From: Marsupella aquatica
Lineage: Eukaryota > Plantae > Marchantiophyta
NCBI GenBank assembly: GCA_973895155.1
Contig: OZ316892.1
Location: 13,022,238 to 13,086,237, forward strand
Reading direction: 5' to 3'
DNA: 64,000 nt
Part shown: in pieces, positions 12-36,730 of the stretch
Layout of the letters: every line of letters starts with the position of its first letter
How positions within the stretch are numbered: position 1 is the stretch's first letter
Notes under the pieces: generated by a model
Database searches by the model: none
What the model was told of the DNA's origin: nothing
What the model saw: only the letters and a program-made list of their open reading frames with translations
Program-made: the position numbers and the translations under genes

Positions 12-3000
12 TTGACCATCGAGGAGGAGAACTATCTCTCCTGGACACTAGACGTCAAAGCTAACCTAATAGCTAAAGACATATACGAAACGATCATAAC
101 CGATCAGGGCACAACAACCCAACAGAAGGCGAGAGCCTTGGTGTTCATAAGACACCACCTCGTAGAACCACTAAAGCTACAATACCTTAACGAGGAAAAT
201 CCCCAAAACCTTTGGGATTAACTCAAGGAAAGATATGACCACATTAAGACCATACACCTGCCTAGAGCCCGCCACGACTGGGCTAACCTTCGCGTCCAAG
301 ACCATACATCTATAGTTAACTATAACAATGAGCTATTCCGCATCACATCCCAGTTGGCCCTGTGCGGCCAACCAGTCACCGACGAAGAACAAATAGAAAA
401 GACAGTATCAACCTTCCACTTAGGGAACATCATACTCTCGGCACAATATAGAAACATGAAGTTCACAAAATACTCTAAACTTATAGCTCACATGTTACTA
501 GCCGAGAGGCATCAGGAGTTACTATTGAAGAACTCCAAGATGCGACCCCCGGGAACCGTGCCAACACCCTCAACCACCAAGACAAACTTTGGAATGCCTT
601 CCAGTAGCAGAGGAGGCCAACGGGGCGGGTTCAGCCGCAACGGTAGACGACAGTTCAGAGGCGGAAGATCAACCTACCTTAGGGGGAGGGGCAAAGGCCA
701 CGGAGCTGAAGAAAGCCGCGGATGAGGAAGATCAAGCTTCAACTACACCCGTGGAGGATCGGAAAGACCAGGAAGACCAGCCCAACGGAGTAGTTCATCC
801 CAAAAATACTCAGGAAGACCCATCGTGGAGTGCTTCCAATGCGGCACCAAGGGCCACCCACAGAAATTGTGCCGCACACCGGCACATCTAGCAGAATTAT
901 ACCAGCAGAGTAGAAATAATAGAACTCAGGAGGTACATCATGGCACTTTTCTAGAGCAAGACAAACACCTAGAAAACTACACCCATGACGGGACTATCCC
1001 TGAGACACATATGATTACACATTAGCAAGATCCCTTACCTTTAGACAACATTAGATAGCGGCACGGCCCACACTACATTAAAGTGCAGGGACTATTTCAC
1101 TCACGTTACTCCCTCCCACAAAAACATGACTACTATCATGGGGAGTAACCAAATAGAAGAAGGTAACGAACCCGTCACAATCACGTTACCTCAGGGCACT
1201 ACTATCTATATTAACTCCGCTATATACGCATCTAATGCCACGAGAAACTTGATTAGTTTCAAGGACATTAGAGATAATGGATTCCATATCCACACTAGCA
1301 CAGATAAAAACCATGAAGTAATTCATATCTTAAATAATACTTCCGATGGAAAGCAAATAAAAGAAACACTTTTTGCGTATCCGTTGGGTTTCTATGTCAC
1401 ACAATTGAATGTTTTTCATTCCACTACGCATGAGATGTCACTATATGACCTTTGGCATACCAGGCTTGACCACCCTGGCATGACCATGTTTCAAAAGATG
1501 AAAAGAGTAACCCAAGGAATACCACAAAACGCACGCCCAACGAACCATAATCAGTCCTGCATGGCATGTTCTCAAGGAAAGTTAATCGTTAGACCCTCTA
1601 TCCCCAAGACAATCCACGAAATGCCCAGATTCTTGGAACGAGTGCATGCATATGTACGTGGCCCTATTGAACCACCAAGCGGACCATCTCAATTTTTCCT
1701 AGTCATTATTGCCGCATCCTCAAAATGGTCGCAAGTTTTGTTGCTTTCCACGTGAAACATGGTTTTTCCACAACTTTTAGCACACGTCCTTAAGCTAAAA
1801 GCTCAATTCCCTGAAAACCCTATCAAGACAATTAGGGTTGATAATGCAGGTGAATTCACTTCGAAAACATTCGAAGACTTCTGCATGGCTACAGGGATAG
1901 ACACTCAATACCCTGTACCTCACGTCCATTTCCAAAATGACATCGCTGAATCTGTCATTAAGAGAATACAGATGATAGCAAGACCCATGCTTATACAGAC
2001 ACAGTTACCCACAAGTGCTTGGGGTCACGCTATACTACATGCAACAGCTTTACTTAAATATCGCCCATCGGCATATAACGACCAAACTCCACACCACCTA
2101 GCCTTTGGAGTAGATCCTGACTTATCACATGTCAGAACTTTTGGCTGCCAAGTACTAGTCCCTATAATGGGACCCAAACGTACTAAAATGGGACCTCAAA
2201 GACAAAGGCATATATGTTGGTTTTGAGTCACCATCCATAATTAGGTACTTAGAACCATCAACTGTCGATGTCTTTCAAGCGAGGTTCCCTCACTACCATT
2301 TTTATGAGAATGTTTTCCCCAAACTATTCAAAGGGAAACCACAATTTGAACGACCTTGTAACCTAAAATTATGATGGCGGACTCAGTCCACTATTTGGAA
2401 CGATCCACGCACACGACAATGCGAAGAAGAAATCCGTAGGATATTACAACTAACAAAGACGGTGGAGAAAACGCCAGACACATTCACAGATATTCGCAGG
2501 TGATGAGATCACATATCCCTGTTGCAAATGCTCTTGCACGTCTACAAGAATCCACACAACTGACCACGGACTAACCACCAAGAGCAAAACATGGACGTCC
2601 TTTGGGATCTAAAGATACTCAACCAAGACAAAGAAAACAACAACAACAATATCACCTGTGATACCAGAAGTGGTATCCACACCAAGTCCTGGGGAAATCC
2701 CAGAAAATGAAAAAATCTCAATTCACTACATGAATACTGGGACCATATGGAATAGAAATAATATCCCCATGGACGACAACTTTGCTTACCACATTTCCCA
2801 AAATATCACAAATACACAACCTGACCCTAAAACAATCAATGAGGCACAGAAAAGCCTGAATTGGTCAGAATGGGAAAAGGCAATTAACTCAGAATTGGAT
2901 TTACTAATTAAACGCCAACTGTTTGGACCTATTGTCCCAGCACCACAAGATACCCACTCAGCGGATTATAAGTGACATTCGTGAAAAAGAGAAACACACA

Positions 3001-4464
3001 AGGCCAAGTTGCAAGATATAAAGCACGCATTGTCATGAAAGAATACACACAAATACCTGGGCCTGACTTTGACTTGACATATGCACCAGTGATGGATGCA
3101 ATGACCTATCGATACCTAGTTGGATTTTCCCTAGGTCATCGACTAAAAATGCATCAAATGGATGTTGTAACAACATATTTATATGGATTATTGGATACTA
3201 CGATATACATGAAAGCACCCCAGAACTAATAAAGAGACAAACATACCATATTCAGGGGGATCATAAGACAAAGCAAAACCCATCCACATCCACATCTCTA
3301 CCTTATACCACAAAAAGACCCCAGGAAGGGAAAACGGGGCAAGGTGGACCTATAGTCCATCAAACACCATGGAGTGAACCTATTGTCCTTCCTAAGAGCG
3401 GACCTATTGTTCCTCCAATACATAAATCCATGCCTCTGGCCAATGATGGATATGGTGTCCAGATCATTAGATCTTTATATGGACTCAAGCAAAGCGAAAG
3501 AATATGGTATCAGAGATTTAGAGATGAAATGCTGAATATGGGTTTTACTAATGACAATATTGCTCCTTGTTTATTCATTAAAAAACATGATGAGGAATTT
3601 TTAATAATTGCCATCTATGTAGATGATATTAAACTATTTGGACACCTAAACTTATTACAACACACCATTGAAATACTAAATCGTGTATTTGAGATGAAAG
3701 ACTTAGGCCAAACCCACTACTGTTTGGGCCTACAGTTCGAACACCTACCTGATGGTATACTTTTACACCAAAGCACTTACACTACAAAAATCCTCAAACA
3801 ATTCAACATGGACAAGGCACATCCTCTAACTTCTCCTATGGAAGTACGATCTCTAGACAGAGACAAGGATGCATTCAGGAAGAGAAACAAAAACGAACCA
3901 CTACTCGGTCCTGAAAAACCATACATATCAGCAATAGGAGCACTCATGTTTCTAGCCAACCAGACACGACCAGACATTTCCTTTGCAGTAAACCTACTAG
4001 CCAGACATGTATAGTGCACAACCCACCATACGCCACTGGAATGGCATAAAAAGAATAATGCGTTACCTTCAAGGAACTATTGATATGGGACTATATTTCC
4101 CTAATAACACTAATAAGACCTTAACAGGCTACGCGGACGCTGGATATTTATCAGACCCAGTCGACGCTAAATCACAGACTGGTTATGTATTTCTATATGG
4201 TACTACAACCATTTCTTGGAAAAACACTAAACAAACACTAACATTCACTTCATCTAACCACGCCGAGATTATTGCATTATACGAAGCCAGCAGAGAGTGT
4301 ATTTGGCTAAGAAGAGTAACCGACCATATTAATACAAATTGCGGCTTACCAGCACTAACCGAACCTACCAGCACTAACCAAACCTTTTGAGCAGGTCTCG
4401 AAAGGATTCATCAAAGGAGACCGCATCAAGCATATCGCACCAAAATTCTTCTTCACCCACGAAC
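12..4464 (+). pseudogene. copia gag-pol polyprotein pseudogene (many stops and frameshifts)
   Basis: ORF fragments 12-221, 354-725, 825-1025, 1126-1755, 1759-2226, 2658-3229, 3430-4014 and 4007-4390 are collinear pieces of one polyprotein. Confidence 0.93.
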
Positions 4465-4520
4465 GGGCCCGACCTCTGTGACAGGAAATAGGAAACAGTA
4501 ATGATCATAACAGGAAAAAG
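4465..4520 (+). repeat. Left degenerate TIR with ACAGGAAA/ACAGTAA subrepeats
   Basis: Matches the reverse complement of 16040-16098 from about position 10 (CTC..TGACAGGAAA..CATAACAG.AAAA). Confidence 0.8.
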
Positions 4521-4744
4521 AGTGGAACAAAATAGGAGAATTGGTACTATCATCCACAAAACACGGCACAATTCTCTACAAAACCAATGAGGTCAATTTC
4601 AACATGAAGTCCAATATGATGGGAAAAACAACAATTGTCGGACGACACGTTTACTAGCGCCAAGCACTACCCAAACGTTTGTTACCGTTACAAAACATCA
4701 TTGACTAAATACCCGTTCAACGTCTACTAGAATGGTCAGAATTC

Positions 4745-7700
4745 CTAAAAACCATGTGTATTCTTCATTCCTAAGATGTACTGGAGTTCACCAATAGTAA
4801 GAATTGGTTGGCTTGGTAATACCGAATCCAATGGATCCAGCTTAAAGACCATTTTGTAAACCCAGTACAAATGCTTACAAGGCATGAAAGGTCTTCCTCG
4901 AGAATGCCGGCGAAAGAAATCCTCACAAGAGCAGCATGGGAATATGAAAATCTACACCCAGTAAGTGTTTGCCATCCTCAAATGAGCGTGTGTTTGGATG
5001 CGGAATCGTTTCCCATAAGAGTTCCCTGAGGAGACGTCCAATTCTGTGATGAGAGTCATCGTTTCCTTAGCAGCAGATTCAACCCTTCTATGATATTCCT
5101 GAGTAAGATTTGATCTGGGGTTCATTGGGGGGCCGTTCCTAGTTTGAGAATGGATGTTGATTTGTGCCATATTGATCTTCTCAGGAAAAACATCAACATT
5201 GATTCTCAAATCAAAAGGAGTAGGGCTGGAGGCCATGCTTTGGTCTCGTGAGAGGATTACAACACCCTGTTCTTCAAGGAAACTTATCTCCAAGTTTGAC
5301 AGATTTGTTCCTTTCAGTATCGGCAAGGACATTGGATAAGGAGGCAGGTTTGCTATACCTCGACGTGGGTGACTCTTCCAACAATTTCCGTTGGGGCAAA
5401 ACCACACAAACTTTGCATGAGGTTCTCCTCTGAATAGGCGCTCGGGGGGGGTCACTTCCACGGAAGTGACACATCACGTGCGACGAAGTATAGGCCCATT
5501 TAAATGGGTGTGGCGGAAGACTTCCAAAGTTTGGTGGAAGAACACATAGGGCATGTTTTATTGATTGGTCGACTTTAAAGAACACATGGGCCTATTTAAT
5601 TGCAAAAAATACTTTCTATAAAGTTTTTAGGGGTTTTTTAATAGAAAATGACAAAATTTTAAGAAAGAAAGGGCTTTGCAAAAAAAAAAATTTCACTTTA
5701 AAGTTAGGGGGGTCAAACCCTAAAACGTTGCACGCGATGTATGACCCTCCATATAGTGACCCCCCCGAGAATAGGCGATGTCCTTTGACAACAACTCCGA
5801 TGACACCAGCATTGGAAGGATATCCAACCTTCTTAATCCGATTTCAACACTCATCACGATCGCATCTCCCTGACAATGTCCCGTTACACTGTGGGCCGGG
5901 CCCAAGTCTTGAAATTCGACGAAGATGCCAAGAACCGGGATCAACGTCCATCTCCAAAAGCGACATGTCAGGGACGACTGGATTTTGGTTAAAAGAGACT
6001 TATGGTAATATTGAAGATGCTCCACCTCGACCAGAAGGAGGTGCATCCTGCATGTCACCCGGGTCTTCTTCACTCCCAGTCAAATCGATCGGTGTTTCAG
6101 GAGTACTAAGTGGAATATGAGAAAACTGAGTAGAGTTCAGATTTCTGCGTTTCAAACCCCGTGTATTTGGTGTTGTTATCAAAATTGTGTCATGACGATG
6201 GGAGTCTTGGGCCGAGACATTCCCTGTCGTTGGACCTTTTCTTTTGATAGATTTGGTTACAAAATCACCGTTCAATGGAGAACTCCTCTCCAAATCGAAT
6301 TCCGCCGCATTAGCTAGTAGAAAATTAGAAGCCTCTTCGAACAATCGAGGGGACCCAGCCTGATTTGCAGAACGGAAAGCTAGTTCAAAAACCGTAGGAC
6401 TTGTACCTCTATGTAACCCATCACGGTAGGCAATATAGGCGGCAATTTGGGAGATTGCTCGATTGTGCTCAGTTTTGCACCCCTCAAATAAACCTACAGT
6501 TTTCTTCCCTTGCCAAGCTTTCATGATACCATGAATTGCCTCAGATCCTGTGCAATTGGGAATCATCCCTCCTTCTTGTGCACTTTTGCTCTGCAGGACG
6601 GCGTGGGTTGGTCAAATCTCGAATATTACTTTGGAAGACGTGATGATATTATCCATCAATACTTACAAATTAAAAGTAGCGCCGGGCGCTGTCAAAAAGG
6701 ATAAGAGAATTAAGCAAAATAGAGTCTTAATAGTAGCGCTCGGCGCTAGTTTAGAAGTATATGAGATATTGAAAAATGAAAAGGCCATGTCAATGTCATA
6801 CTCACAAGTCTGATAAAATTTCCCCACTGTCGCCATCTTACAACCCACCAAGAGATCCATCCTTGCAGCATCCAAAGCTTTCCAGGAACGCAATTTCCGG
6901 ATCTCCACCATAAATCAATCTCTCTAGAGATTCTATAGGCTTCAACAAAAGTTGATGCATTTCTGAGCTTATCCCAGAGGGTTCGATGCTCTGCACGTTT
7001 GTCTTCCAACACTCCTTCGATGGAATGGCGATGCAAAGATTGGTAAAAATGAAAAGCGTCTGATCTCTCCTTCTCTAGATTTGGATGGCCCCCAAAGAAA
7101 ATTTCTCACCGCAAGCCATCCCGCATGAGCATTGTCAACCATGAATCCGTGAATTTGAACATCATGTAACCCATTTTATGAAGCGACCTCAATCATCAAT
7201 CTCCAAGCTTTCTCAAGAGATTCAGTGTCCTCCGCTTTCAGCTCGCACGTAAATATTGTACATAACGCTTGATAGTTGTGGTCATAGACATGGGCACTGA
7301 AAGTGCTCCATTCTTTAGACATTCGATGCATGACATCAAAACTCACCCATGCTCCTTCAAGTGGCCCACCTTTTTTCATTTGTCGAAGTAGATCGACTCC
7401 AGATCCATGACCTTTGATTGTCATTTTGAAAATATGAGCACGGTCCTCCTTACAGCCTTGCCTTTGAACAAATGGAAACCTCACATTCTTCTGCATTCGA
7501 ACCAGATATTTAAGATCTCCACGACCAGCCTGATCTTTCCGGACGCTCTTAAACAAGGCAGAGAATTTCTGTGGAGTGGAAACAAGCATAAGTGACTGCC
7601 AAATCTCAGTCTCTTCCATCTTCGAAATGTCATGAACAGATTCATCTAGTGCATCCTTCAAAGTTCCAGTGACTGCATTTTTTACAACACAAGGCGCGAA

Positions 7701-8843
7701 AGAAGGATTCTTCAAGTGCTCTTTTCGAATCTCCTCGACCGCTATTTTCTCTGAACTTCTAGACCAAATCTTTTGACATGGATGATTATGTACACCCATG
7801 TGGATTGCGAGGCTTGACATATGTTGCACTGTCACCGAATCAAGCATGACTTGCGGGTACATGTAGAACATTTTTGCATGGCAAGAGTCCAGACAAAATG
7901 GGAGCTGCAGACAATAACGACAAACAATCCCTCCTACATCAATCAACTTTCCTGGACAATGTTGACCTCCTAACTTAGGGGTCCCTTCCCAAGATGAACA
8001 ATTCCTACCATTGGTTATGATATAAAACTCGCATGAATTGTTCCGACATTCTAGTGACCCGCTACAACTAACCTTCCCAAACTCCCACATCTTCTTAGGT
8101 AAGACATTGGCTGAAGTGGGGAAAATTCTAGTCCATAGATAGCAATCCTTTGACCGGTCCATGTTAAGGAGACGCTTTCCTTTTGAACCAACACAATCAA
8201 CAGGTGGAAGCTCAAATATGACATTGCCATTATAACTTCTGGAAAGCAATTCCACTTGCTCGTGCATGAAAACCTCCGATTTAACAAAGCGAGAAATCTC
8301 ACTTTGTCCAGATGATTTCAAAAGTGCATCTAACGCGCTTCGCCTATAGACGATAGTAACAGGCGGAGCTAAAAGAAGTGTATCAGATCCACTAATTGTT
8401 TTGTTCAATCCTGGAAAAACAAGAGGAACCCGTTCCTTTGATGAGCTCCCCTGATGTATTGGAACTGATTCTTCTCTCTTAATGTTTCCAACATTCATCA
8501 AAAAAGGAGATCCAAGGAATGAGTCGTCGCCTTCAGATGTGAGATTGATGACTTCCCTCGGTGCAATTACCTTCTCTAATTTAACACGAACATCATCTTT
8601 TCCTTTGAGGTATAGAGAGTAATCAACACCAATATGCAACTCCCAAAATTTCTCTCCTTGACTGTAATGGAAATGAGCTGTACAACCAGCAAATGTTCCT
8701 AAATTATCAATATCTTTCCTTCGCACATCAAATCTTGCGAAAAGATAATTCTCACTAACGCATTGAGTACCTGGTTGATTGGTCACAGGTACGGTAATCA
8801 CCTCACCTATCGCCGGACAACTTACTCTAATTACATGCTGCAT
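4745..8843 (-). pseudogene. MULE-like transposase pseudogene: GCM/WRKY-like Zn domain, DDE core, Cys-rich region, SWIM finger
   Basis: N-terminal CSGSLEC..C..CRYC..HMGVHNHP. Putative catalytic residues in FDVMHR, FMVDNA (~7140) and NCTGSEAIH, with a CxxH-equivalent SDAFH. GT-AG intron 6805-6591 joins NFIRL|SKSAQ in frame. C-terminal CSCEDF..PCKHLYWV SWIM at ~4860-4935. Stops at 7176, 6000 and 4952, frameshifts, and a MITE insertion. Confidence 0.82.
5441..5769. mobile_element. 329-bp MITE inserted in the transposase exon
   Basis: TIR CTCGGGGGGG(G)TCACT...AGTGACCCCCCCGAG and 8-bp TSD AATAGGCG (5433-5440, 5770-5777). Excision restores GVVVKGHRLF|RGEPHAKFVWFCP. Confidence 0.92.
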
Positions 8844-9881
8844 TGCGGAATATCATCGACCACAATGGTAAAATGAGAGTGTCGTGATAGTTTTAGTTTC
8901 TTATTTCACCGCTTCTAAGAAACTTCAACAAAGAAACCACCATATGACAATTTGAATTCCAATTTCATTACCGTTGATGCAACGGAAAAGTGACCAAAGA
9001 ATGGCGGCGGATGACCATTGGAAGCAAAATGTTTCCATTAGTTTAACGGCATCTTCAGCAATGGATATTAGTAGCGCCAAGCGCTAGCAAAAATTTCTTT
9101 TTTCATGCCACACAATAGGTGGAGATGAACGCAAAAATACGACAAGATGAGAGATATATTTACCCACAACATTGATAGCACTTGGCGCTATTATTAATAA
9201 TACATATTCATGTGTCCAAAAAGTGAAGAACTTTACGACCATTGTTGTATTTAGGGAATGAAATGGCATTTCAGAAATGATTTAATAATAGCATCGGGCG
9301 CTATTATGTTCTGGGCTTATTTTTATGGTAAGGGACCTTAATATCTCCCAGCGTGATTATGGAAATGTATGAAACTTAATGGTGATTTAGGTGTAATTTC
9401 TATAATAGCGTCGGGCGCTATTATACAGACTTGTCCGCTGTTGTGACCCAACGGATATTTATAACGATAACTTCATATCTTAGTGACTGTTTTATCCCTA
9501 AAGTGGCAAAGATTTAGAGACATCATTTAGATAATTTTGGTTCTGTTAATCATGACCGTTTAGAACATGTGACATGTGTCTCTTTCTTGTTGGTGTTGTC
9601 GCTCTTTTTGCTGTTTCTTTTCAGATCATGAAAAGTAAATATTTAAGTTGATCGACAATCTTTGATGGAAAGATTGTCGATCTTACATGTGAAAGGCCAA
9701 TTCAATATGTCCGATCATGTTTTGAGATTTGCTGTCCTCTCTGTCTTCCGGGAAAGAACGTGCTCCATGTTGTCTGTTTGCGACATGGAGCTCATCTATC
9801 CGGTCGCAGGATAACGTTGCAGACCTCTACGATTGGCTGAGAACATTCCCAACCTTACCGCCTTCTACTCTTTATCTAGAG

Positions 9882-12800
9882 ATGGACAATACTTCTCCCG
9901 GTAATTTTGAGACATCCGAGACTTCATTCTTTGGTTCTGTATACACTCGGGGAGTTACACGCTCAACTGCATCGCAGTCGCTTCGACATATTGGGCAGAC
10001 AGTTCCAAAGCAGAAACAAGGAGCCATGGAGAATTTCAGCAATTTTGTGATGGAGGACGGAAGCGAAGGGGCTCTGTCGATGGGTGATGTGATCGCAAAA
10101 CATGCGATGTCGTTTGAGACTGATTTCAGAGGAGAGCCTAAGGATCCCCCCCGTATACCGCTTTGTCGCTTAGTCAACATGGAAGTTGTTCAGACTCTGT
10201 AGAAGGAGAGCGCTTCGATCGAGAAGCTCAGAGATTCATTTTGGAGTTCTGGTTACAACTCCTCCATAGGGATGTGGTTCTATGTGCAACCCGCTGATTT
10301 TGAAGGGGTTATCCAATTCTGCACACTCAAAATTCGTGAGAGTTGGGATGCTATATGGGTTTCCCAGAATGAGAAATTTGAAGCGGACTGCGAAATGGAT
10401 CCCGATTTTCTTGTCTTCAAAGACAAGATGTTTTGTGTATTTGACGGGAATCATTGTCTCTATTCCTGGTTACAGATCACGGACGAAAACCCCAAAAATA
10501 TCAAGTACCATCCTCGTGTGCTTTGCACTGTATTCAAGGGAGATCGAGGCTCTCTCATCGAGATTGAGGCTGCAATGCACACAGTCAATCAGTAAGTTCC
10601 ATCATTTTCTTTCATTGAATGTCAAAAAGAATGAATATTTTTTTCAATGTTTGGCTAGCGCCTGGCGCTGATGATTTCCGTTTGGTTTCAGATTGGGACA
10701 AGCCGTGGTAGAACCGTCATGGATCTTGGATGCAGATCAAATCAATCAAATTCTGTCCCATGACCTTGATTATTATAAGGCAATCATTGACACAGGAAGC
10801 TTCAAACGATTCAAGGCGATTCAAGCGAAGACAAGGAAAGGCTCTTGGTATACCAAGAAGATGCCTTTGGAGGCTCTTGTTTACATCTTGTGTGAGAACA
10901 AGATCAAGTCATATTCTCTCCAGTTCAAAATGGACATGGCAACTGCAAACTCTCAAGGAAGGCCATGGTCAAAGGAGGAGGTCGCTAAGCGTCACGCAGC
11001 GATGATGAAGGAGGCCACAAAGGAATGGAGCGTGAAGACCTCAAAGATTACTCCTCTCCTAAGTCCTGAATTCAATAATTTTCTGTCAACTTGTGCAGAA
11101 ATGTACACTCTGACAGAAAAGAACAAGCGGGAATGGAAAGCAGAGTCCGTTGTTTGTACAATGGATCGTGCTCGACTCTTCATTGCTTTCTCCGCTTTGG
11201 ATCCGAAGTTGCGTTCTACTCTTCTTGTGGCACATTGCACACCTGAACTTCGAAAACAATTTTTCCATCCACCTAGTGTGAATGACGAACCTGTGAAGCA
11301 ATGGTGTCATACATGGCACATGTGGAGTTGGATAGAAGGAATTGCAATAGGGATGTTGCAGACTGCTCTCAGGGAGATAAGTAATCTGATCAGTTATCAG
11401 TCACTTTCATCAGTGTACCTGATATCAGCTGCCACCTCATCTTAGAGAGGCCGCCAAGTTGCGATGCGAGAGGAAAAAATGAAGAACAAAAAATCTTGAA
11501 TTTTTCTTCAAAATTTGAAGGAAAACCTCTCTTTTTTTCAAATTTTTTTTCGCCATGAGACATCCCTACCGTACGGACACCTATCTCGGCGAGCCCAGCC
11601 GAGATGGGAAAAAAAAAAATTCAAATTTTTTTGGGGGAAAATTTTTGGTTTTTTTTTTCCCACATTTTTTTGGATCCGTACGCCCCATCTCGGCGAGGCC
11701 AGCTGAGATGGGGAAAAAATCTTCAAATTTTTTTTTTTTCAGAATTTTTTTGGATTTTTTTTCGGTCCGTACGCCCATCTTGGCGAGGTCAGCCAAGATT
11801 GAATCAACCTCGGCTGCCCAACTAAGATGAGCGGAAGTTCGAAGGCCCCATCTCAACTCCTCAACTGAGATTCTAAAATTTTTGAGATAACTGATGATGT
11901 TGTGTACCCCCTCTCAGGCAAGTTGAATCAATCATGCCTCCCGAACGACTCGTGACAAGAGGAGTAGATACTTTTGATGGTTTGGTCCAGAGCATTTGTA
12001 ATGATTTCAGAATTTACGGAGATATTGTGAAGGCCAAGTTCTTCAACACAATGTGGGCTTCAAAGTATGGGGAGAAAGAAGATTTCACTACACGAAACCA
12101 GAAGCGGGCAAAGAGATATGTTTATCGGTTCTTCATGTCCATGGAGAGCGTTTTGCCTGAATACTTCTGGGCTTACCCTCCTGCATTCCAGAAGTGGTCT
12201 GTCATGGATGGGGATGCATTCAGCGAGGTTTACAGTATGTATCCGACAGATGGAACCAACCCTCCGCGTGACCTTTCTGAGTGGGAGAGAGAAAACTGTC
12301 CATGGTACCTCGATACTGATAAGTGGGATACACCTTTTGATGAATTTGAGAAAGACTCCTTTCTGAAATTGTCCAAATCTCTAGTTCCTCGCAAATTGCT
12401 GTCAGAAATGAAGGAAGGTTTAGTGGGAGATGTTGAAGCTTCAGCGGTTGAGCTTCAAAAAATTTGCGAGACAGAGGTCACACGTGTTGACCGAAGCCGA
12501 AAGCCACGCGCGAAAGTAAAAATGGATACAGGATTGAATAGCCCGTCGACACGATCTGGAAGAAAACGTAAGATGTTCAACTTATTGTTCTTCTGGTTTT
12601 TTTCATAGTTTTGGTTAGCGCCAAGCACTACTTTGAAATGTTAGATAGATACTCATAATTCTGTTCCAATTTATGTATACATTGGATGGCTAGCGCCAGG
12701 TGCTGGTATAGTTTCCTTTATTAATTTCTATTCATACTTTTTATAGGGGGAAGAAAATCAGAGGGAGAAGAAACGCAAGATGCAAAGACGACCATCACCC

Positions 12801-14188
12801 CAGAGCTCCGAAGCAAACACGGAGGCTGCTAACGCCTTGGAAGAACAAACTCCTCCAACCAATGCCAACATATCTCGTCCTGTTGATGCCACGAGCACAA
12901 GGAAAAAGAAGAAGAAGAACCACGATCTTGGTTCGATTGCGTCCACCGAGGTCCAACGAGAAGTTGGTCGATTCAATTCAAAGGTTAGCCGTCATAAGTT
13001 TGTTGAGTCCAGTGTTATGGAATTTTTTGAATCTGTGTTTACAAATGAGACCAAACCCGCATGGGTGATGACTGTTGAAAAGTGGGGGAAAGACTTAGTG
13101 GCACTTGGTCTTCGCGAGAAAGGCGTTGTAAGGGGAGGGAAGTTAAGAGCGTTTGGGGTAGATGCGGGGTTTGTGTATTTACCAACGGGGCTAAGACCTT
13201 CTTTGCTTCACCGGAAGTCGCCAAAGTGGAATGTCCCGGATCACCGAATTGTAGGTTCCTTTTTTCGGGCCATGGACCCATTTCTAGCCGATGATGGATT
13301 GTTAGCAGTTTGCACCTGGGGAGTACGACCAGATTTCCCAAGTTATTTCCGCAAGCCAAGAGTCCCAGAAGTTCCAGTGCCTGAAAACACTCAACGTTGT
13401 AATGGGCGTCCCAATGTACATGGCCAGAAGCGATTGTCAGGTAATTATCCTCATCTTTGATTATCTTTTTGGCTAGCGCTTGGCGCTAGTCATATATTCA
13501 ATTTCACGGTATTGAGTTTAGGGTTAAAGTCTTTATTTTTCGTCTGGTTTTTTGGTAGCGCCAGGCGCTACCCATGTCCCTTGTTATATATCTCATTTTT
13601 CTTGCTTACTTCACAGGTTTTCACCTTAAGACTTGACATCTTCAGTCGGGTTACATCGAAAGTCAGGGTTCCAAAGGATGTAAAGTTTAAGCCTTTGTCT
13701 GTAACTGAAGACCCTTCAATCACGAATCTCATTGGATTGCAAAGTCTCAAGAATGATCCTTCTCCTGAAGGTGCATTTGCTGGGAATGCTCGTCTGCCTG
13801 TCGGCTTCATGCAGTCTGTCCTTGAGTTAATTACGCATCCGGGAGATATTGTTATGGATTGGACGGTTGGTTCTGGGAGCACATTTGTTGCGGGTGACTT
13901 CTGTGGCCGTTTCATTCTTGGGATTGAAAATCGCAAGGAATTTGTGTCCATTGCTGAAAAGACGTTCAATGATCTTCTTCTCCCCAAAGAAGTGAGTGAG
14001 GCTGGTCCGAGCAAAGACCAGGGGAAAAAGTTAAGGACAAAGTTTGTTCTGTTGTGAATTTTGATTCCGAAGAAGAAGAAGCCGATGTTGGTGATGTGGA
14101 TGGTGGTGAAGATGTAGATAATGTAGAAGAGAAGAAGGAAGAGGGGAATGCAGAAGGAGAAACGGATGATTCAGATTCCTCAGAGTAA
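9882..14188 (+). pseudogene. Spliced accessory gene of the transposon: ParB/Srx-like N-terminal domain, N4C/N6A (beta-class-like) DNA methyltransferase-like domain, acidic tail; decayed
   Basis: Exons ~9882-10591, 10692-12567 (split by insertion 11374-11910), 12747-13440 and 13617-~14188, possibly with a further exon ~14290-14584; all introns GT-AG. Motifs: IPLCRLV..KMFCVFDGNHCLYSW (ParB-like DGxHR) and RLPVGFMQSVLELITHPGDIVMDWTVGSGSTFVAGDFCGRFILGIE (like the C-terminal SAM-binding block of N6_N4_Mtase). Stop at 10200 and frameshifts near 12747, 13320 and 14050. Confidence 0.75.
11374..11910. mobile_element. 537-bp non-autonomous element inserted in exon 2 of the accessory gene
   Basis: 8-bp TSD CTCTCAGG (11366-11373, 11911-11918) and imperfect TIRs sharing ATCAGTTATC. 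Three internal hairpin repeats CCATCTCGGCGAGGCCAGCYGAGATGG are separated by A/T tracts. Excision restores LQTALR|QVESIMPPERL in frame. Confidence 0.9.
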
Positions 14189-14595
14189 TGCCCGTAAGCT
14201 CCTTCACATTACATTACTATTTGTTTTCTTTGTTTTGTTTCAAACACATCAATTAAAGCCACGTACTTAGTGTTCTAACCAACTCGCAGGTCCGAGTGGA
14301 ATCTTCGCGAGAGGTTTCACCTACGAAGGAAATTTTCAAGGAAGGTTCTCATTACCCCGGAGAAACCATTTGTATTGCCTTCCTACGCCGAGTATGCCGC
14401 TCGCAAAGAAGAGAGCAGGAGAACCCTGACTTGGGAGCATAAAGGCTTGCAATTGAGACGAGGTTCGGATCAGAAGTTTATCCATCATCCTTTTGTCGAC
14501 GACATGGCACGGAATGAATTTGTAGACGATGAAGCAGAGTCTACAGATAGATCGGAGAGTAGTGGGTCAGAGTGTGCAGATTAGATTTGATTAGC

Positions 14596-14645
14596 TTAGA
14601 TTAGATTAGATTAGATTAGATTAGATTAGATTAGATTAGATTAGA
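14596..14645 (+). repeat. (TTAGA)10 microsatellite
   Basis: Read directly; lies just after the stop at 14584. Confidence 0.95.
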
Positions 14646-15071
14646 GTTTCACCGTTTGGTCAATTCCCCCCTCCAAAATAGTAGCGCCCGATGCTACTTA
14701 TTATTCATATGACGTGAAGCTGGATTAAGACAAGGTGGGCAATGTATGATGTTCCGTATATCCTTTTAGGAGGACAAATGTACTGAAATACTTAATTCAA
14801 CAGAAGTACCCGTACAAGTGTTTGTTTCCCTTCCGTAATGTCATTGCCTGTGGTACTCATTGATCTCAATGGACTGGTGTTTTCTCTGTATGCGTGATTG
14901 AAACGGAAACTTTTTCCCTTGCTCGAAATTGCATTGTTAGTCATTTCATTTAGACTCTCCCCTTTCGTCCCTCTCCTTTTGACAATTTGTAGGAGCTCTT
15001 GGAGGCCTTTGCCATTTACGCTTTTCGGTGTCAAGTCCTTTGAGAGACAAAAAGTCATTCGTGTAGTGACC

Positions 15072-15542
15072 ATGGACAAAGGGAAGCAGGTGAAACAAGA
15101 GAGGACTTCCCGCCTCACAAAGTTTGAGGGCAAAGCATCTGATGGTGATCTGTTTCCGAACTTCCCAATCGAAGATACTACTCACTCTGAGACATCGACT
15201 GAGCGGAATCGACTGTGGCTAGCCTCCGATGAGGGGATAAGTTTCCGATCAAAATCTATTCCTTCTACTCATTTATCGCCTCCCCGGTCTTTTCGAGAGC
15301 GTTTCTCTATTCACGATCCGGACCCTTCTGATCACTATGGGGTTGGAGGGACGCAATTTTTTAGGGACATTCAACAGTGGACTGGGCGAGTTGGATTCTC
15401 TTATTCGAACATATCAAATTGCAAGCTTAGGAGTCGCCTTCCAGGGCCGCATTTTTTTGCTGAGCGGGAGGATGGATTTCATCAAGATGACGATCGGTTC
15501 AATGCAGGACTCGATGATGAGTGTGGATCGTTGACATCCTGA
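15072..15542 (+). other. Possible third small gene of the transposon (unknown function, possibly frameshifted)
   Basis: MDKGKQVKQ... ORF with an overlapping alternative frame 15337-15534, flanked by palindromes at 14682 and 15579. No recognisable motif. Confidence 0.3.
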
Positions 15543-16039
15543 TCTTTAGGAAGTCTTTTTGCACACTCTCGTGATAGATAGTGCCCGGCGCTATCGCTAT
15601 TAAGAACAAAGGAGATAGGATTTTGTTTGTTCGGGATGTTCAGTTTGTAGGATACAGCTTTTTAGTTGTTAAGTCGATTCACTGTTCGCAACATCTCTAC
15701 ATATTCTGGAGTTTAAAGTTGTAAGAGGTATTGTCACCTTGCATAGCTTTTATTCCACAATGACACTCACTAGTCGGATTTAGGGATTTAGTGGCAAAAT
15801 GACACTCACTAGTCGGATTGTATGTCAATGACAATGAGTGTCTTGGGGATTAGTTTGTTCTTACCCGACCTCCTAGATGTTTTGGATTCTGTGACACCTT
15901 TTTTTGGAGTAGCGCCAGGCGCTACTAATACATGGAGCCATTTTTCTCAGGCTTTACTTTTGAACTTCGTTTTATAACTGTTCTCTCAAACCCTATTTTT
16001 ATTGATGGATGGCGAATGTTCAGAGTATAACCCCGTCTT

Positions 16040-16098
16040 CTTTTACTGTTATGTTTTCCTGTTTCCTGTTACTGTTTCCTGTCATGGAGAAAACCTCC
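16040..16098 (-). repeat. Right degenerate TIR
   Basis: TTTCCTGT/TTACTGT subrepeats ending ...TTCCTGTCATGGAGAAAACCTCC immediately before the TSD. Confidence 0.8.
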
Positions 16099-16248
16099 CA
16101 CGAACACCAAGGAGACACCATTCAAGTGAAGACAATTGCGAGCAAAGACAACCATGCAGATTTATTCACAAAAGCCTTGACTCTAGCACTACATACTATT
16201 CATTGTCAAGGCATAGGCTTAGGCAAACTATCAAAACTCAAAGATTAA
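16099..16248 (+). pseudogene. C-terminal end of the copia RNase H, resuming after the insertion
   Basis: Reads HEHQGDTIQVKTIASKDNHADLFTKAL...KLKD*. Removing 4465-16105 joins ...KFFFTHE|HQGDT... in frame. Confidence 0.93.
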
Positions 16249-23222: not shown

Positions 23223-25700
23223 TTATCTTCCAAGTTGCTGAGGGGGCAGACCAAACAATGCATACAAATCTTTCACCAAGATTTGAGATGCCATCCTAAC
23301 CCCCTCATAAAACTTGCAAGCAATGAATACATGATATTCATTCTCTATACTAGAGCTATCACATAGTTGACAAACCCTCTTTTTCCTGTCAATATCCTTC
23401 CATCTCCCTTGTTCTACTTCAAGGTGGTGTGAGCTTAGTCTATACTGAGCAATAAGTTGTCTAAGTTGTACTGAGATAGTGCTAGATAAGTATTCTTGTT
23501 CTCGATATTTCTTCATGGGGTTCACATCTCTCATGTAGTATTGCTGCCGTGGGCTAGGTTCATGCCAAAGTTTGTGCAAAGCCTTTTGCTCAAGTTTTGC
23601 TCTTAGCTTGGTTGGGTGTGTTGGCCATTCATGTTCAGGAAAATCCCAAGCATGGGCCCACCTGCACACATCTGCATACCACCCTTTAGCTGAAGATGAG
23701 CGCAAGGCATGAAAAGGAAATCTGTTTTCCTCCAACTCTCTTACATGCATGATGTATTTGAGTGTGTGGAAGAGTGCCTCCACCTCCAAGGAAACAAGCC
23801 TGCCTCTGCAAGTGTAAGTGCATATGGGGTTTGTGACTTGATCCCAAGCTCCATCTCAAGAAATAGCTTTTGCAGCCCCTCAATCTGTTGCCACCCAGAT
23901 TTAGACACACCTGCTCCCCAAATTGGTGCTCTATAAAGAATGACTGGTTTCACCAAAGCTCCAAAGAGATGTTTCCTTAACCTCCAAGTGTGTAGACCAG
24001 CTCTTTTGCATTTGTTCATGAATGCATAAAAAGCTCTGTACCCATTGGCAGCCCTAGATTTTACACATGAGGCCCAACTCAAGTTTTGAGAGAACTCCAC
24101 CCCAAGGTATTTGTAGGTCCTCACAAATTCCACCAGATTCCCTTGGAAGTAGAGCTCTGGATTTTGTCGTGTGCCAATGCCCAAACACTTGGTCTTCTTG
24201 AGGTTGACTACCATCCCTGTTGCTTGACAAAACTCCTCCAAGGCATTGAGATGTCTTTGCAAAGCTTCTTGAGCATGAGCAAGTAGGACCACATCATCTG
24301 CAAATATAAGAAGTTGGAGGACAAACCTACCCAATTGAGTGCCCACTCCACCATGCTCCTCCAAAATGTTGTGTAGCTGATCAATGAAGATGCCAAAGAG
24401 AGTTGGTGAGAGAGGACAACCTTGGATCATCCCAAGAGTGCTCCAGATTTCTTCAGAGGTTTCCTTTGAAAGTTTGATGCGCACTTCTTGGTACAATTTA
24501 GAAACAGCTAACCTGAGCTCTTCAGGCACTTCCAACTCCACCATCCTATCCCAAAGCTTGGATCGGGAAACTTTGTCAAAGGCCTTGGAGAAGTCCACAA
24601 ACAAGCAAAATAATGGTTTATGTGGAGATTTGGCCTTTTCACACAACACCCTCAAGTAGAGAATGTGATCCATAGTGCTTAATTCTCTCCTAAAACCTGC
24701 TTGTGAAGGTGCCCTTTTCATCTCACTCTCCAACCAAGAGCTTAATCTGGCTTCAAGTAGTCCTCCCAAAACTTTAGCAAAAGTATTGCCTACCATGATG
24801 GTTCTGTAGTTGTGCACATCGTCCTTGTTGCCTGCCTTGAAGATAGGCACCACTCTTCTAGTCATCCAAGCTTTAGGTAAACCTAAAGCCATTGCTTGAT
24901 TCAGCTCATGCACCAAGTTTGTTAGTAAAGAGGGTCCTCCCCACAAAAGAAGCTCCAAGTTCAGGCCCAACAGATCTTTAGCTTTCCCATGTTGCATGTG
25001 GGAAAGATGCACCTTCACCTCCCTCTCTATAAACTGAATGGTGTCCCCAAGGGGCAAAGGCATGCCACTAGCATCTGGAAAGAAATACAAGGATGTGACA
25101 TAGGTTACCAGGTAGAAATACAAGGATGTGACATAGGTTACCAGGTCCTGGTGATCCAAGGGGGGAGTAGTCTTGCCTGATTGCATTCTCTCCCAAAAAC
25201 GTTTTGGATGTTTGATGAACTCCTCACATAGTGATTGTTGATGACTCTTCAAGAAGCACCTCTTCTTGTGTTTGATGAAATTCTTGTACATAGTGAATGC
25301 CAAAAGTCTCTTTTCCCCTGAATGTGATCTTGCTTGCATCCTCGCTCTAGCACAATCCTCGTCAAACCAAGCCTTCATGTTTTGCTTTCTAGGGGGTTTG
25401 GTGGAGAAAATAGAGGCTGCTGCTTGTGCTATGACTTCTGAGAGCTCAATCTGATCATCCAGGGTATGGAGAAGATGTTCAAAGTTGGCTTTGAAGATGA
25501 TTTCTCTATCAGGGTCTAGAAACAGAGGTTTGAGTATTGACTTTCTATGCACTTTGTTTGGGATTGTGATCAGGTCAAGATGGAACAACAAAGGCAAATG
25601 TGAAGACTCTGGTTGTTGATCAAGTATTTGAAAATCAACCACTCTAGTGACAGAGGTAGGTGACCAATGCCTTCGCCTTACCACACATGTGCTGACGAAC
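23223..25700 (-). mobile_element. Non-LTR retrotransposon (LINE) ORF2: RT plus C-terminal Cys/His domain; 5'-truncated or degenerate, one frameshift
   Basis: ORF 23741-25684 has PIFKAG..NYRTI, QAGFR, FVDFSKAFD, QGCPLSPTLF, FADD and YKYLG. ORF 23223-23789 has RLSSHHLEVEQGRW..CQLC..ENEYHVFIAC. A 33-bp tandem duplication sits at 25081-25146. Confidence 0.93.
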
Positions 25701-27354
25701 CCTTGTGTGCCAGAAGTGGAAGAGTGGCAAATGTGGCAAAGGTGAGAATAGTAGGTGGAATTTTGGATACAAAAATACTCTGGTGCAAACGGCTTCCCTT
25801 TACAGTGGCAGAAGGTGCTGCATGATCGTTTGCGTTGTTAACATAAGTACAAGGCATCAAGACCTCCTTAAAAACAGTAACCGAGAGAGCAATTTCTGTC
25901 AACTCATTAAATGGACATCATGTATGTTTACATCAAAGTGAAGAGAGAATGTTGTCCAGTGCAAAACTGTGTTGGGAGTTTTCAGGACCAAAGAAAAAAC
26001 AGCAGACCTGTTTGCTCAAGTTATTACAGGTAGGTAGCAATGTATGCCATCTAAGAGGTATAACATCATCACACTTTCTTTTTGTTCGAAGTGTTTAAGG
26101 TGTTCCAATTCTAATTCAAGAATTGTAAGGTAGTCTCCCTAGTGTTACTATTGCGATATTTGCTGACCTGGGTAAGAATGGAAGCACCCTCTGAAATACA
26201 CCACGATCATTCGATATAGGAATCTAAATTTTTTAACCAAACCATTTCATGCAGGTATGTTCTAGCAAACTGGGCCTGTCGAGATTTGAGACCTATCGTC
26301 CAGCCCACTCAAGTGTCCGCTAGAGGATTTCGGTGCTTTAGTCATGGCTCTTTGCAGGACAGTATGGTGGCATAGGATTACTCAAGTCGTCTACCCAGTA
26401 GTCCGCAAGAACTTGGAGCATCGGTCCGGCCTAAATAAACCAATATGGAATGTTCGACAAAACTCAGATGGACTCGGCGATGAGCGCTGACGACTAATTA
26501 TATACGTAACGATATCTTTATTATCTTCTTGCACGAATGATAGTGCGAACAGTTGATCCGAAAGAGGGAGGGGGCATCTGAGCCTCGATTACTGCTTCCC
26601 ACAAAAAACTTCATGAACCAGTGGTACTTGGGAACATTAGTTGGGAACACACCACTAAATGGCCATATCATTCAACACAGCAATGATGGTCCCCAATATC
26701 CAACATGCAAATACTAAGACGACGAATTCACAGAAATAAACTCTTTGTTCAAGTGTGGAACTTTATATACATTCACTTGGTTTACAGTACACCACATCGG
26801 AACAATCCAATGGTAAGGAGTCATGAATTTTGTCCTCTACCACTAGAGCCTTAGAATGAAGTGAAAATGATAAAAGCTACAAAGTGGAATAATTTATTTT
26901 GCGCCAGGAGAAATCCATCCACTTGCATGATGGGAGCGCCCCCATCCAAGGCTACCAACAAGATAAGCATCCAGAAGATTCCATGCCCAGCCAAAATACT
27001 GATTCCAACTTTAAAGCCTAACAGTAAAGCAGCAGACCAAGCCAAAAATATTGATTCCAACTTAGAAGCCCTACCAGTCCTGAATCTGGACTTCAAATGG
27101 TTTCATGGCGAGCCCAACTCTAGTCAAAACCCAGAGTTCCCAGCCCCATCCGCCCCAACTAGAGGAGAGAGTGTCTAAAGGTTACGGAAAGAGAGCTTAC
27201 TGAAAGATTCAAGTATCCGACAGAACACACTTAGCTCTTCTAGTGAACCCCCACCACCAAAGCCCTATTCTTTCCCAAAATTTACAAAAGTAAATGTGCC
27301 TCCATCAAACTCGTGCGTTCCTTCATGGTACTAAAGGGAAAAAAACCTCCCCGA

Positions 27355-33300: not shown

Positions 33301-34181
33301 ACGCCATGCAATCTGACTGGGACTTCCAAGCAAATTTCACACAGGCCGAATTTCGAAGGACAACGTTATCTTGGAAGCATCAAAATTTCAAGGAAGCTTA
33401 CATCGTACTGGTGAAGATCCTTATCAGGTAGTTCAGCGAAAAAGTGATTCGCCTTCACTATACACTTGGTGCCAGTCTGACCCTTGCCCGGACGAAGAGG
33501 AAACCTCAGAGCTCGGCTAGAGACCGGAGGGGTCTGTCTAACGGGAGACGATGGGCCCGGTTCTTCGACATGCAAGTCTTCCAGCGCCGTCGATATACTT
33601 AATTCTCCAACCTGAAGCGCTGCTATCGAAGATCCGCCAGCAGGAGAGAATCCAACATTGGCGGGTTGTGCACTAGCTGAAACTGGCTGTCTCGGAGAAA
33701 CATACGATGCTGCTTGCTGAGGTCCTCGTGATAAACTAGTATACACTTCACCAGAGCCGGACGGGGGATATGGCTGTGGTTGTCCAGTGGAAGAAAATCC
33801 AGACTGTGCAGGATGAACATGGGGACCTCTAGAACTTGAGCCATACGACCCTCCACCACCTCCCTGATAACCACCGCGACCTCCCTCCCGGCCCCTACCT
33901 CGACCGCCACCACCCTGCCGTCCCCTACCCCTGCCCTGTCCCCCACTTGGGACACCTTGCTGCGGTCCAGGCCCGAAACCTTGCTGAGTTCCGGGACCAG
34001 GATGAGGTCCACCTGGTGGACCTCGTCCTACACCACCAGCTTCATCTCTAACCTGTTGAACTGGTTCCTGAGTTGCGGATCGAGGAATAGGTGGTGCAGA
34101 CGAATCAGACGCAGACGCAGACGCAGACGCCTGTAAGGCAGCCTCCTCTATTTCCTTCGGAGTCCTCCGCTTCCGCGGCAT
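27355..34181 (-). CDS. AGO1: Argonaute 1-type protein, ~22 exons, apparently intact slicer
   Basis: Gly-rich first exon 34181-33402 ([23 protein letters not shown]), then N/PAZ/MID/PIWI exons with GT-AG introns ([66 protein letters not shown]). Last exon [22 protein letters not shown]. Catalytic D/D/H residues are present. Internal exon edges are approximate. Confidence 0.97.
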
Positions 34182-36394: not shown

Positions 36395-36730
36395 GTCAAC
36401 CTCTCCTCCTCCTCCTCCTTCCACTCCCAACAACAACAACAACAACGTCGACGACCATTCCCATTCCCATCGCCCGCCGACTGCGCTACTCACTACTCCA
36501 GTCTCCAGTCCTCCTGCAGCACGCGTGGATAACAACTCGAGCCGTAACTACGGACATCCACCAAGCAACCGGTCCGTTTCACGCCACTTCCCATTTTGCA
36601 AAGGCGCCCATCCATCCAAGAACCACGGAGACCAAAGTCGGCCCGGCCCGCTCTCTCTGACGAATGCATCCATCTACTCCTACTACTCCTACTACTCTAC
36701 TACTCTACTCACTACTCACTCTACCACTCT
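36395..36730. repeat. Low-complexity microsatellite cluster (CCT, CAA, TAC) in the probable AGO1 promoter/5' leader
   Basis: Triplet runs read directly; located ~2.2-2.5 kb upstream of the AGO1 ATG. Confidence 0.6.

Follow-up and report, generated by a model that had tools for sequence, protein, structure and literature searches.

Here we describe an 11,632-bp mobile element in a 64,000-nucleotide stretch of the Marsupella aquatica (Marchantiophyta) genome (assembly GCA_973895155.1, contig OZ316892.1, positions 13,022,238 to 13,086,237; hereafter the window, numbered from its first letter). It has decayed and belongs to a multi-copy family of DNA transposons, likely of the Mutator type and of a divergent lineage. 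In it, a transposase gene is paired with an accessory gene whose product is predicted to join a ParB-type nucleotide-binding and DNA-binding fold to an amino-methylase fold, and an array of 15 palindromes occupies the non-coding parts. Our reading of this combination, which we put forward tentatively, is that a ParB-type, site-loaded protein covers the element that encodes it and protects it from silencing. ParB clamps that load at sites have been described in bacteria and in bacterial mobile elements; here a plant transposon lineage would carry such a predicted protein.

With up to two mismatches to TAGCGC-N3-GCGCTA allowed, 15 sites lie inside the element and none in the remaining 52 kb of the window, against a chance expectation of 0.18 under an order-3 Markov model and a maximum of two in 100 simulations. 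In full, the dyad reads TAGCGCC-N-GGCGCTA. Scanning de novo for palindromes recovered 12 in the element versus at most two in four control stretches of the window, and the fear that the palindrome might be common outside the family is, within the window, unfounded. As the original prediction had claimed from the sequence alone, the sites are confined to non-coding parts: none of the 15 overlaps the coding segments, which were assigned by homology and GT-AG ends without RNA data and occupy ~70% of the element (chance 2e-8). They are located in four of the five predicted introns, between the two divergent genes and at the inner edge of each element end, the terminal pair being placed symmetrically, ~190 and 173 bp inside the two ends. 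Sequences flanking the 15 sites are unrelated to each other, while the dyad itself is kept. Of the 19 deviations from the perfect dyad, 16 are C>T or G>A, a bias suggestive of originally perfect sites that later decayed under host 5-methylcytosine (5mC) methylation. A separate observation is that the dyad core CC-N-GG (CCWGG in four of the 15 sites) is rich in CG and CHG, so that host 5mC could block or be read there.

The accessory gene lies head-to-head with the transposase gene and is spliced, as had been proposed, with GT-AG introns and an intron position shared with its relatives. An exhaustive protein search with the ParB exon found 174 relatives among 50%-identity representatives (one of the listed matches, P0135, is a spurious trefoil repeat); a word-indexed search, covering longer proteins only, gave no match. 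The organisms named among 30 relatives looked up are Riccia sorocarpa, Adiantum nelumboides and A. capillus-veneris, and the relatives in the two genera are full-length or partial. Riccia R1sor_027256 (1,207 aa) is colinear with the window gene over the ParB, middle and methylase regions at ~30% identity, and 26 clusters of the methylase domain occur on several long Riccia contigs. The gene is thus family-wide and old, and not the one-off captured host gene that would have spoken against the proposal. Of the 28 exonic differences listed in other copies between 13150 and 13440, 25 are at the third position of a codon (P 1e-9; a row at the frameshift is excluded); judged by this codon bias, the methylase-like exon was under purifying selection. 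Two side observations concern the ParB exon. The gene model P0131 fuses a Ty3 gag to the ParB domain of the accessory family, probably a retroelement inserted in a copy. Furthermore, the language-model neighbours of window positions 10203-10592 include fungal DUF3723 clusters (score 0.95); we take DUF3723 to be a Starship accessory gene, which would hint at a ParB-like protein on fungal mobile elements, and a search of the literature for a link between DUF3723 and ParB found none.

The same anatomy recurs in metagenomes. We compared 80 loci (the best of 128 confirmed), equivalent to 54 non-redundant groups, which contain introns and are mostly decayed. In six of the nine groups with at least 8 kb upstream, a transposase homolog lies on the opposite strand upstream of the ParB exon (L031, L035, L048, L049, L054 and L079, at a distance of 0.8-8 kb; decoy maximum of the profile search ~4 bits). 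Another, in L052, lies 0.3 kb away, and the layout is head-to-head in all seven loci with a transposase homolog. Downstream of the ParB exon, 68 of the 80 loci have the middle region, and methylase exons follow in those read by eye. A first methylase profile had no matches in these loci; profiles of the half-domains gave weak ones, of which the top 12 are all downstream on the strand of the gene and were confirmed by eye, and the methylase of L001 reaches Pfam E 0.005. Domain order and head-to-head layout are conserved in the relatives, and the anatomy is confirmed and extends to other land plants. The window palindrome itself is represented in the 54 non-redundant loci by one two-mismatch site only. 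Other palindromes take its place: GGTGCC-N6-GGCACC occurs 17 times in L011, upstream and in an intron, and L035, L036 and L052 have a common 20-bp dyad, (A/T)ACTTT-N8-AAAGT(T/A), in 7, 4 and 11 copies, upstream and before the methylase exon, which is also visible below threshold in L039. Palindrome type thus differs between subfamilies, as it does for VANC of the Arabidopsis VANDAL elements, and arrays are not established as universal. The palindromes of L011 (2000-3950) were also seen to sit in tandem units of ~140 bp, the kind of arrangement reported for the expansion of VANC motifs, and those of L052 in units of 51 bp.

These comparisons bear on the simplest alternative, in which the element carries the accessory gene as an inert captured passenger, with the palindromes being debris of repeats or else RNA hairpins. 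The window copy is dead, 16 of 23 related loci have no clear palindrome array, and a hairpin of 6-bp stem and 3-nt loop is conceivable. Against this stand the third-position bias, the numbers of relatives and of Riccia clusters given above, the conserved head-to-head layout, and a dyad that is kept amid unrelated flanks, in introns of both strands and outside genes; we consider the alternative highly improbable.

The ParB assignment derives from structure prediction. A 906-aa AlphaFold2 model of the Riccia relative P0159, for which 119 sequences were used, has high confidence over most of residues 10-520. Among 48,161 chains searched, the five matches at Z>=5 (KorB, PadC, pNOB8 ParB-N, sulfiredoxin and SerK) all have the ParB/Srx fold, with KorB at the top (Z 7.4, root-mean-square deviation (rmsd) 6.6, 195 aligned). 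The leading Foldseek rows repeatedly include ParB, Noc, Srx and SbnI entries; ParB and Noc, re-aligned from these candidates, reach Z 8.3-8.7 and rmsd 5.1-5.8 over 179-199 residues (model range ~20-392), spanning nearly the whole N-terminal (nucleotide-binding) and DNA-binding construct, whereas Srx and SbnI match only up to residue ~184. The model is closer to nucleotide-bound ParB/Noc forms (rmsd 5-6) than to DNA-bound open forms (10-12). Among 53 aligned relatives, the arginine of a G-N-H-R motif is kept in 46 and an upstream arginine in 48; the window copy has lost both, its V-R reading Q and its GNHR reading C. GxxR is the P motif of ParB, and nucleotide preference is reported not to be readable from sequence (PMC12704722). 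Because the top structural matches agree and the nucleotide-site motif is kept, the accessory protein is predicted to have the nucleotide-binding and DNA-binding fold of ParB, and since the structural match appears to include the DNA-binding domain, this case is stronger than the ParB-like motifs originally proposed. Sequence comparison was silent here: the ParB-like domain has no match in Pfam or among PDB sequences, a profile of 54 ParB-domain sequences found only an unrelated PDB match (E 0.11), and the ParB part has no tblastn match in phages. A single-sequence fold of the window exon was unusable (predicted local distance difference test score 31). For the helical region 391-520 of P0159 and its incomplete methylase half no structural match was listed, which is not evidence of a new fold.

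The methylase fold, going by its sequence matches, is real. The window domain matches Pfam N6_N4_Mtase at E 1.9e-9, above the curated cut-off; its best PDB matches are DpnA, CcrM and MboIIA, PDB N4 methylases match it weakly (E 0.13-0.8), and its language-model neighbours are N6_N4 methylases. At E<=0.01 the methylase half also retrieves 259 phage records, and most of the 20 listed are annotated as methylases; the Riccia domain finds nothing below E 1 among PDB sequences. Motif IV precedes motif I, which is the beta-class order, and motif I, in the S-adenosylmethionine (SAM)-binding region, is fairly well kept. The catalytic motif is another matter: where (D/N/S)-P-P-(Y/F/W) is expected, the window domain reads Y-L-P-T (13176-13187), as does a 76%-identical relative, and only silent changes are listed there in other copies. 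Motif IV was seen in 20 of 34 proteins scanned (18 Riccia proteins with D-L/M-P-S/T, one with Y-L-P-T and one Adiantum protein with D-V-P-F), so that an aromatic fourth residue, which amino-methylases require, occurs in one of 20; metagenome relatives, read by eye, have DYPE, DIPE, DVPR, NIPR, NVPG and NVPS. In rotifer N4CMT, changing SPPY to APPA, which replaces both S and Y, abolishes activity (PMC8885841).

These motifs weigh against the view that an active methylase writes N4-methylcytosine (4mC) or N6-methyladenine (6mA) at or around the palindromes and so marks the copies of the family. In its favour are the Pfam match, the motif order and kept motif I region, the neighbours, the apparent purifying selection, a D-x-P that most relatives retain, and the D-V-P-F of Adiantum; with the catalytic motif degenerate, self-marking is doubtful, and we rate it improbable. 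The domain is conserved and likely non-catalytic in most lineages, with a presumed role in SAM binding or base binding. Of the original prediction, then, the N4C/N6A-methyltransferase-like part stands as a fold but falters at its catalytic motif, and the self-marking branch is weakened. An apparent intron inside methylase motif I, which the window gene does not have, was noticed by eye in L001, L027, L039, L048, L049, L055 and L063.

The unit that carries both genes is well delimited. Contigs with an empty site, which skip 4456-16096 (joint 4455>16097, nine letters fitting either side), are present in two (X1 and X2) of four public sequencing runs labelled as two organisms and two studies, and a third run, X4, has a near-identical joint. 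Together with the 9-bp repeat they bear out a unit bounded by a target-site duplication (TSD), the duplication placing its end at 16096, 2 bp short of the 16098 first proposed. The ends pair as degenerate inverted repeats of ~190 bp (score 63 versus a best of 43 in 200 random pairs), of which blastn alone detects the palindrome pair only. The unit sits within a Copia element, whose gag_pre-integrase and RVT_2 are found in the flanks; bacterial contamination was considered and rejected, the genes being spliced and lying within this Copia element. In each of the four runs, 1,917-5,161 contigs match the element at >=80% likeness and cover 30 of 30 bins, most of them being <95% alike; although contig depth is not copy number, this shows the family to be multi-copy and diverged across both genes. 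The decay foreseen for this copy is evident from stops, frameshifts and two nested insertions, whose lengths account for frame changes in both genes. Other copies read differently at the stops 7176-7178 and 6000-6002 and at the frameshifts near 7101 and 13308-13315, and two further changes, the mismatch in the palindrome at 12627 and Q at codon 10191, are likewise private to the window copy.

The transposase gene appears to encode, in order, a Cys/His zinc-binding region, a D..D..DxxH..E series and a C-terminal SWIM-like motif, an order that we take to be the signature of Mutator transposases. The DDE/SWIM transposase of the original prediction has on its side the 9-bp TSD and a set of motifs that were read by eye and are in part shared by relatives (FDVMH, MVD, DAFH, SEAIH and a late CxC...CKH); it lacks any match in Pfam or PDB. 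Both Mutator features of the unit itself, a TSD of 9 bp (class range 9-11) and terminal inverted repeats, albeit of the degenerate kind known from VANDAL-type elements, are present, and motif order, duplication and ends together make the Mutator-type assignment likely.

Mutator transposases carry a WRKY-type zinc domain before and a SWIM domain after the DDE domain, and the AtMu1 transposase activates its own copies (10.64898/2026.08.24.746577). It could therefore be the zinc-binding domain of the transposase that binds the palindromes and activates cognate copies, leaving the ParB-methylase protein with another job, and two palindromes do adjoin the element ends. The tips, on the other hand, have short direct repeats of their own (ACAGGAAA), which would be the likelier transposase sites; in L011, the 17 sites surround the accessory gene although the 4.2 kb upstream yielded no transposase; and long dyads suit a symmetric helix-turn-helix dimer. 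We regard this assignment of the sites as a poor prospect.

In the mechanism that we favour, a dimer of the accessory protein would recognise the element's own palindromes through its ParB-type DNA-binding domain, close on a nucleotide and spread from 15 entry points along the element in the manner of a bacterial ParB clamp. The coating would keep the divergent promoters and the introns free of host silencing, and the methylase domain would likely act as a non-catalytic module. That the protein binds the palindromes is probable; nucleotide-gated sliding is an open wager, slightly short of an even one, and the same holds for anti-silencing as the outcome. A fuller version is more speculative still: a widespread land-plant transposon lineage with a ParB sliding clamp gated by nucleotide and parS-like sites of its own, a load-and-slide system of bacterial style coating kilobases of element in eukaryotic chromatin, with a methylase-fold domain that may shield, read or re-mark cytosines, and with clamp and site co-evolving by family.

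A number of points weigh against the clamp reading. Nucleosomes may block sliding, and KorB, the top structural match, is a repressor. The fold scores are moderate, in the middling range of the tool (Z<8, or <13 where proteins are helical), a Foldseek search with the 906-aa model yielded nothing at E<=0.001, and the folded protein is from Riccia, ~30% identical to that of the window. A long insertion precedes the match to the DNA-binding domain, a match that may reflect no more than a general fit between helices, and no C-terminal dimerisation domain was identified in the accessory protein. In three of the nine long loci (L029, L039 and L040) no transposase homolog was found upstream, and the transposase profile was iterated on the same loci, three groups matching without iteration. 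Of the co-occurrence inside TSD-bounded units, a check set out in the original prediction, the pairing of the two genes was seen in six of nine long loci; no TSD-bounded unit was found among the relatives, nor convincing inverted ends around 11 of them. De novo arrays beat all six shuffles by at least two palindromes in seven of 23 related loci, in a comparison covering palindromes alone, and three of the seven (L031, L064 and L079) are tandem repeats, which inflate any motif. Finally, the lack of variants in the palindromes of intron 13441-13616 (none of 11 among the rows listed) is not significant.

Some of these points suit a different use of the same binding, in which the protein serves transposition, by coating, condensing or bridging the element so that weak ends meet, or represses the divergent promoters. 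The symmetric terminal palindromes, the degenerate ends and the four sites between the divergent genes would fit a scaffold or a self-repressor, and KorB, the top match of the wide search, is a clamp-type repressor (PMC11790492). Most sites, however, are in introns over the whole element, which is the VANC pattern (PMC5735166), and sites that vary by subfamily would be better explained by an arms race with host silencing than by mechanics. We judge this use unlikely, if less so than the preceding alternatives.

Among known systems, Arabidopsis VANDAL/VANC is the nearest in logic. The motifs that VANC binds lie within introns and in intergenic or terminal non-coding DNA, and the effect of VANC spreads (PMC5735166, PMC10398659), in a manner left unexplained in the accessible text of the latter. 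Both systems combine a Mutator-type element and accessory gene with short motifs accumulated in non-coding DNA, which vary by subfamily and can sit in tandem repeats (here in L011 and L052). They differ in that VANC motifs are 8-9 bp and non-palindromic and the dyads here 15-22 bp, that the accessory protein here has predicted ParB and methylase folds, and that the relatives are in a liverwort and ferns; anti-silencing has been shown for VANC and is a prediction here. No VANC-type Pfam family appeared in scans of the window exons and 63 relatives, in which only N6_N4_Mtase was relevant and no direct comparison with VANC sequences was made. As its accessory protein appears unrelated, the element is not a VANDAL/VANC member, though it would work like VANC in logic.

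Shigella VirB provides a precedent for a ParB-type clamp as anti-silencer (10.1101/2023.06.01.543266). With VirB, the RK2 repressor KorB, the ICEclc activator BisD, ParB and Noc, the protein described here has in common the predicted fold, GxxR and several palindromic sites, here of parS-like length, on the same mobile element, with no ParA partner seen. It differs in being eukaryotic, spliced and ~1,200 aa long, with large insertions and a methylase tail, and its clamp behaviour is a prediction. Phage fusions of ParB and N6_N4 methyltransferase (PMC12704722, PMC4738411) likewise combine these two domain types in a single chain that begins with ParB; the present protein adds a long helical middle region and a degenerate catalytic motif. 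In the ParB-fold survey, sulfiredoxin is the common eukaryotic form, and the accessible text contains neither 'plant' nor 'transpos' (PMC12704722). The bdelloid N4CMT and Marchantia MpDN4MT1 likewise place a prokaryotic-type beta-class amino-methylase fold in a eukaryote, but are host genes with SPPY and shown activity, and 'ParB' occurs in the accessible text of neither report (PMC8885841; 10.1101/2021.02.12.428880). DIRS1 retrotransposons also keep a likely inactive amino-methylase domain, and ParB-type parts are fused to methylases in algae and chytrids, as in the chlorophyte Dam, which has a helix-turn-helix of ParB type; these differ in methylase group and element class, and no self-site array is described for them in the accessible text (PMC4738411).

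In the open literature we found no description of the element or its protein, in keeping with the original prediction, which knew of none; subscription journals (including a 2025 Marchantia paper) and the supplements of PMC4738411 and PMC12704722 could mention the family. If the clamp reading holds, a protein with ParB, DNA-binding and methylase folds would have been kept, along with palindromes particular to each family, in a liverwort, in ferns and in the host of the window. It would offer a concrete answer to the open VANC question of how a short motif changes the chromatin of a whole element, a question that becomes testable with one purified protein and a 15-bp site. It would also supply natural protein/site pairs for targeted, spreading epigenome editing, and represent a second route of prokaryotic amino-methylase domains into land plants.

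Table 1. Features of the element and its surroundings, in window coordinates.
Feature	Position	Strand	Basis or remark
Left TSD copy, 9 bp, CCCACGAAC	4456..4464	.	Direct repeat and empty-site joint
Whole element (11,632 bp)	4465..16096	.	TSD, empty-site joints; sits in RT/RNase H end of Copia element
Left degenerate inverted end with short ACAGGAAA repeats	4474..4661	+	End alignment; inner edge is palindrome 1
Palindrome 1	4655..4669	.	3' of transposase, inner edge of left end
Mutator-type transposase gene, start uncertain	4748..8843	-	Motifs by eye; intron ~6591-6805
Transposase lesions	4952-4954, 5844-5846, 6000-6002, 7176-7178 (stops); near 7101 (frameshift)		
Nested high-copy miniature element, 9-bp duplication GAATAGGCG	5441..5768	.	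Inside transposase gene; duplication 5432-5440, 5769-5777
Palindromes 2, 3 (6677, 6734)	6677..6748	.	Transposase intron
Palindromes 4-7 (9072, 9176, 9289, 9406)	9072..9420	.	Between divergent genes
Accessory exon, ParB/Srx-fold domain	9993..10591	+	Homology, fold of relative; ATG 10026, in-frame stop 10200-10202
Accessory intron, GT-AG	10592..10691	+	Homology; position common to relatives; contains palindrome 8
Palindrome 8	10656..10670	.	In accessory intron 10592..10691
Accessory exon, helical middle region	10692..12567	+	First part matches position of Riccia model region aligning with ParB DNA-binding domain
Nested insertion, 8-bp duplication CTCTCAGG	11374..11910	.	Splits accessory exon 10692..12567; duplication 11366-11373, 11911-11918
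Predicted accessory intron, GT-AG	12568..12746	+	Palindromes 9 and 10
Palindromes 9, 10 (12616, 12691)	12616..12705	.	Intron; other copies have palindromic letter at 12627
Accessory exon, linker and first half of methylase domain	12747..13440	+	1-bp frameshift near 13308-13315
Accessory intron, GT-AG	13441..13616	+	Palindromes 11 and 12
Palindromes 11, 12 (13474, 13556)	13474..13570	.	Intron 13441..13616
Accessory exon, second half of methylase domain	13617..14057	+	Motif I D-W-T-V-G-S-G
Acidic tail, other frame	after 14057, to ~14188	+	
Possible last exon or small open reading frame (LPSY ... FVDDEAE)	14290..14584	+	Weakly like Riccia gene-model end, E 0.036
Palindrome 13	14682..14696	.	Site scan
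Open frame, 214 codons	14898..15542	+	Without Pfam match
Palindrome 14	15579..15593	.	Site scan
Palindrome 15	15910..15924	.	Inner edge of right end
Right degenerate inverted end	15918..16089	-	End alignment
Right TSD copy	16097..16105	.	Direct repeat of CCCACGAAC

A profile of the small frame at 14290-14584 did not rise above decoys. By eye, such a frame, with an F-x-L-P-S-Y start and an F-V/I-D-D-E-A end, seems to recur after the methylase exons in L039, L055 and L063, and its acidic motif resembles what we take to be chromatin-factor binding motifs. A (TTAGA)n microsatellite at 14578-14647 directly follows the possible last accessory exon. The insertion at 11374-11910 was considered as an intron, a reading rejected in view of its own duplication; it has internal dyads of the type CCCATCTCGGCGAG..CCGAGATGGG in three to four repeats and is, by its duplication length, presumably hAT-like. 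The miniature element at 5441-5768 has GC-rich inverted tips and by far the highest summed contig depth within the element. Elsewhere, the window contains a further reverse transcriptase frame (23741-25837), a weak Argonaute N-terminal match (E 0.002; 33366-37340) and an uninterrupted 430-codon uroporphyrinogen decarboxylase frame (51812-53104).

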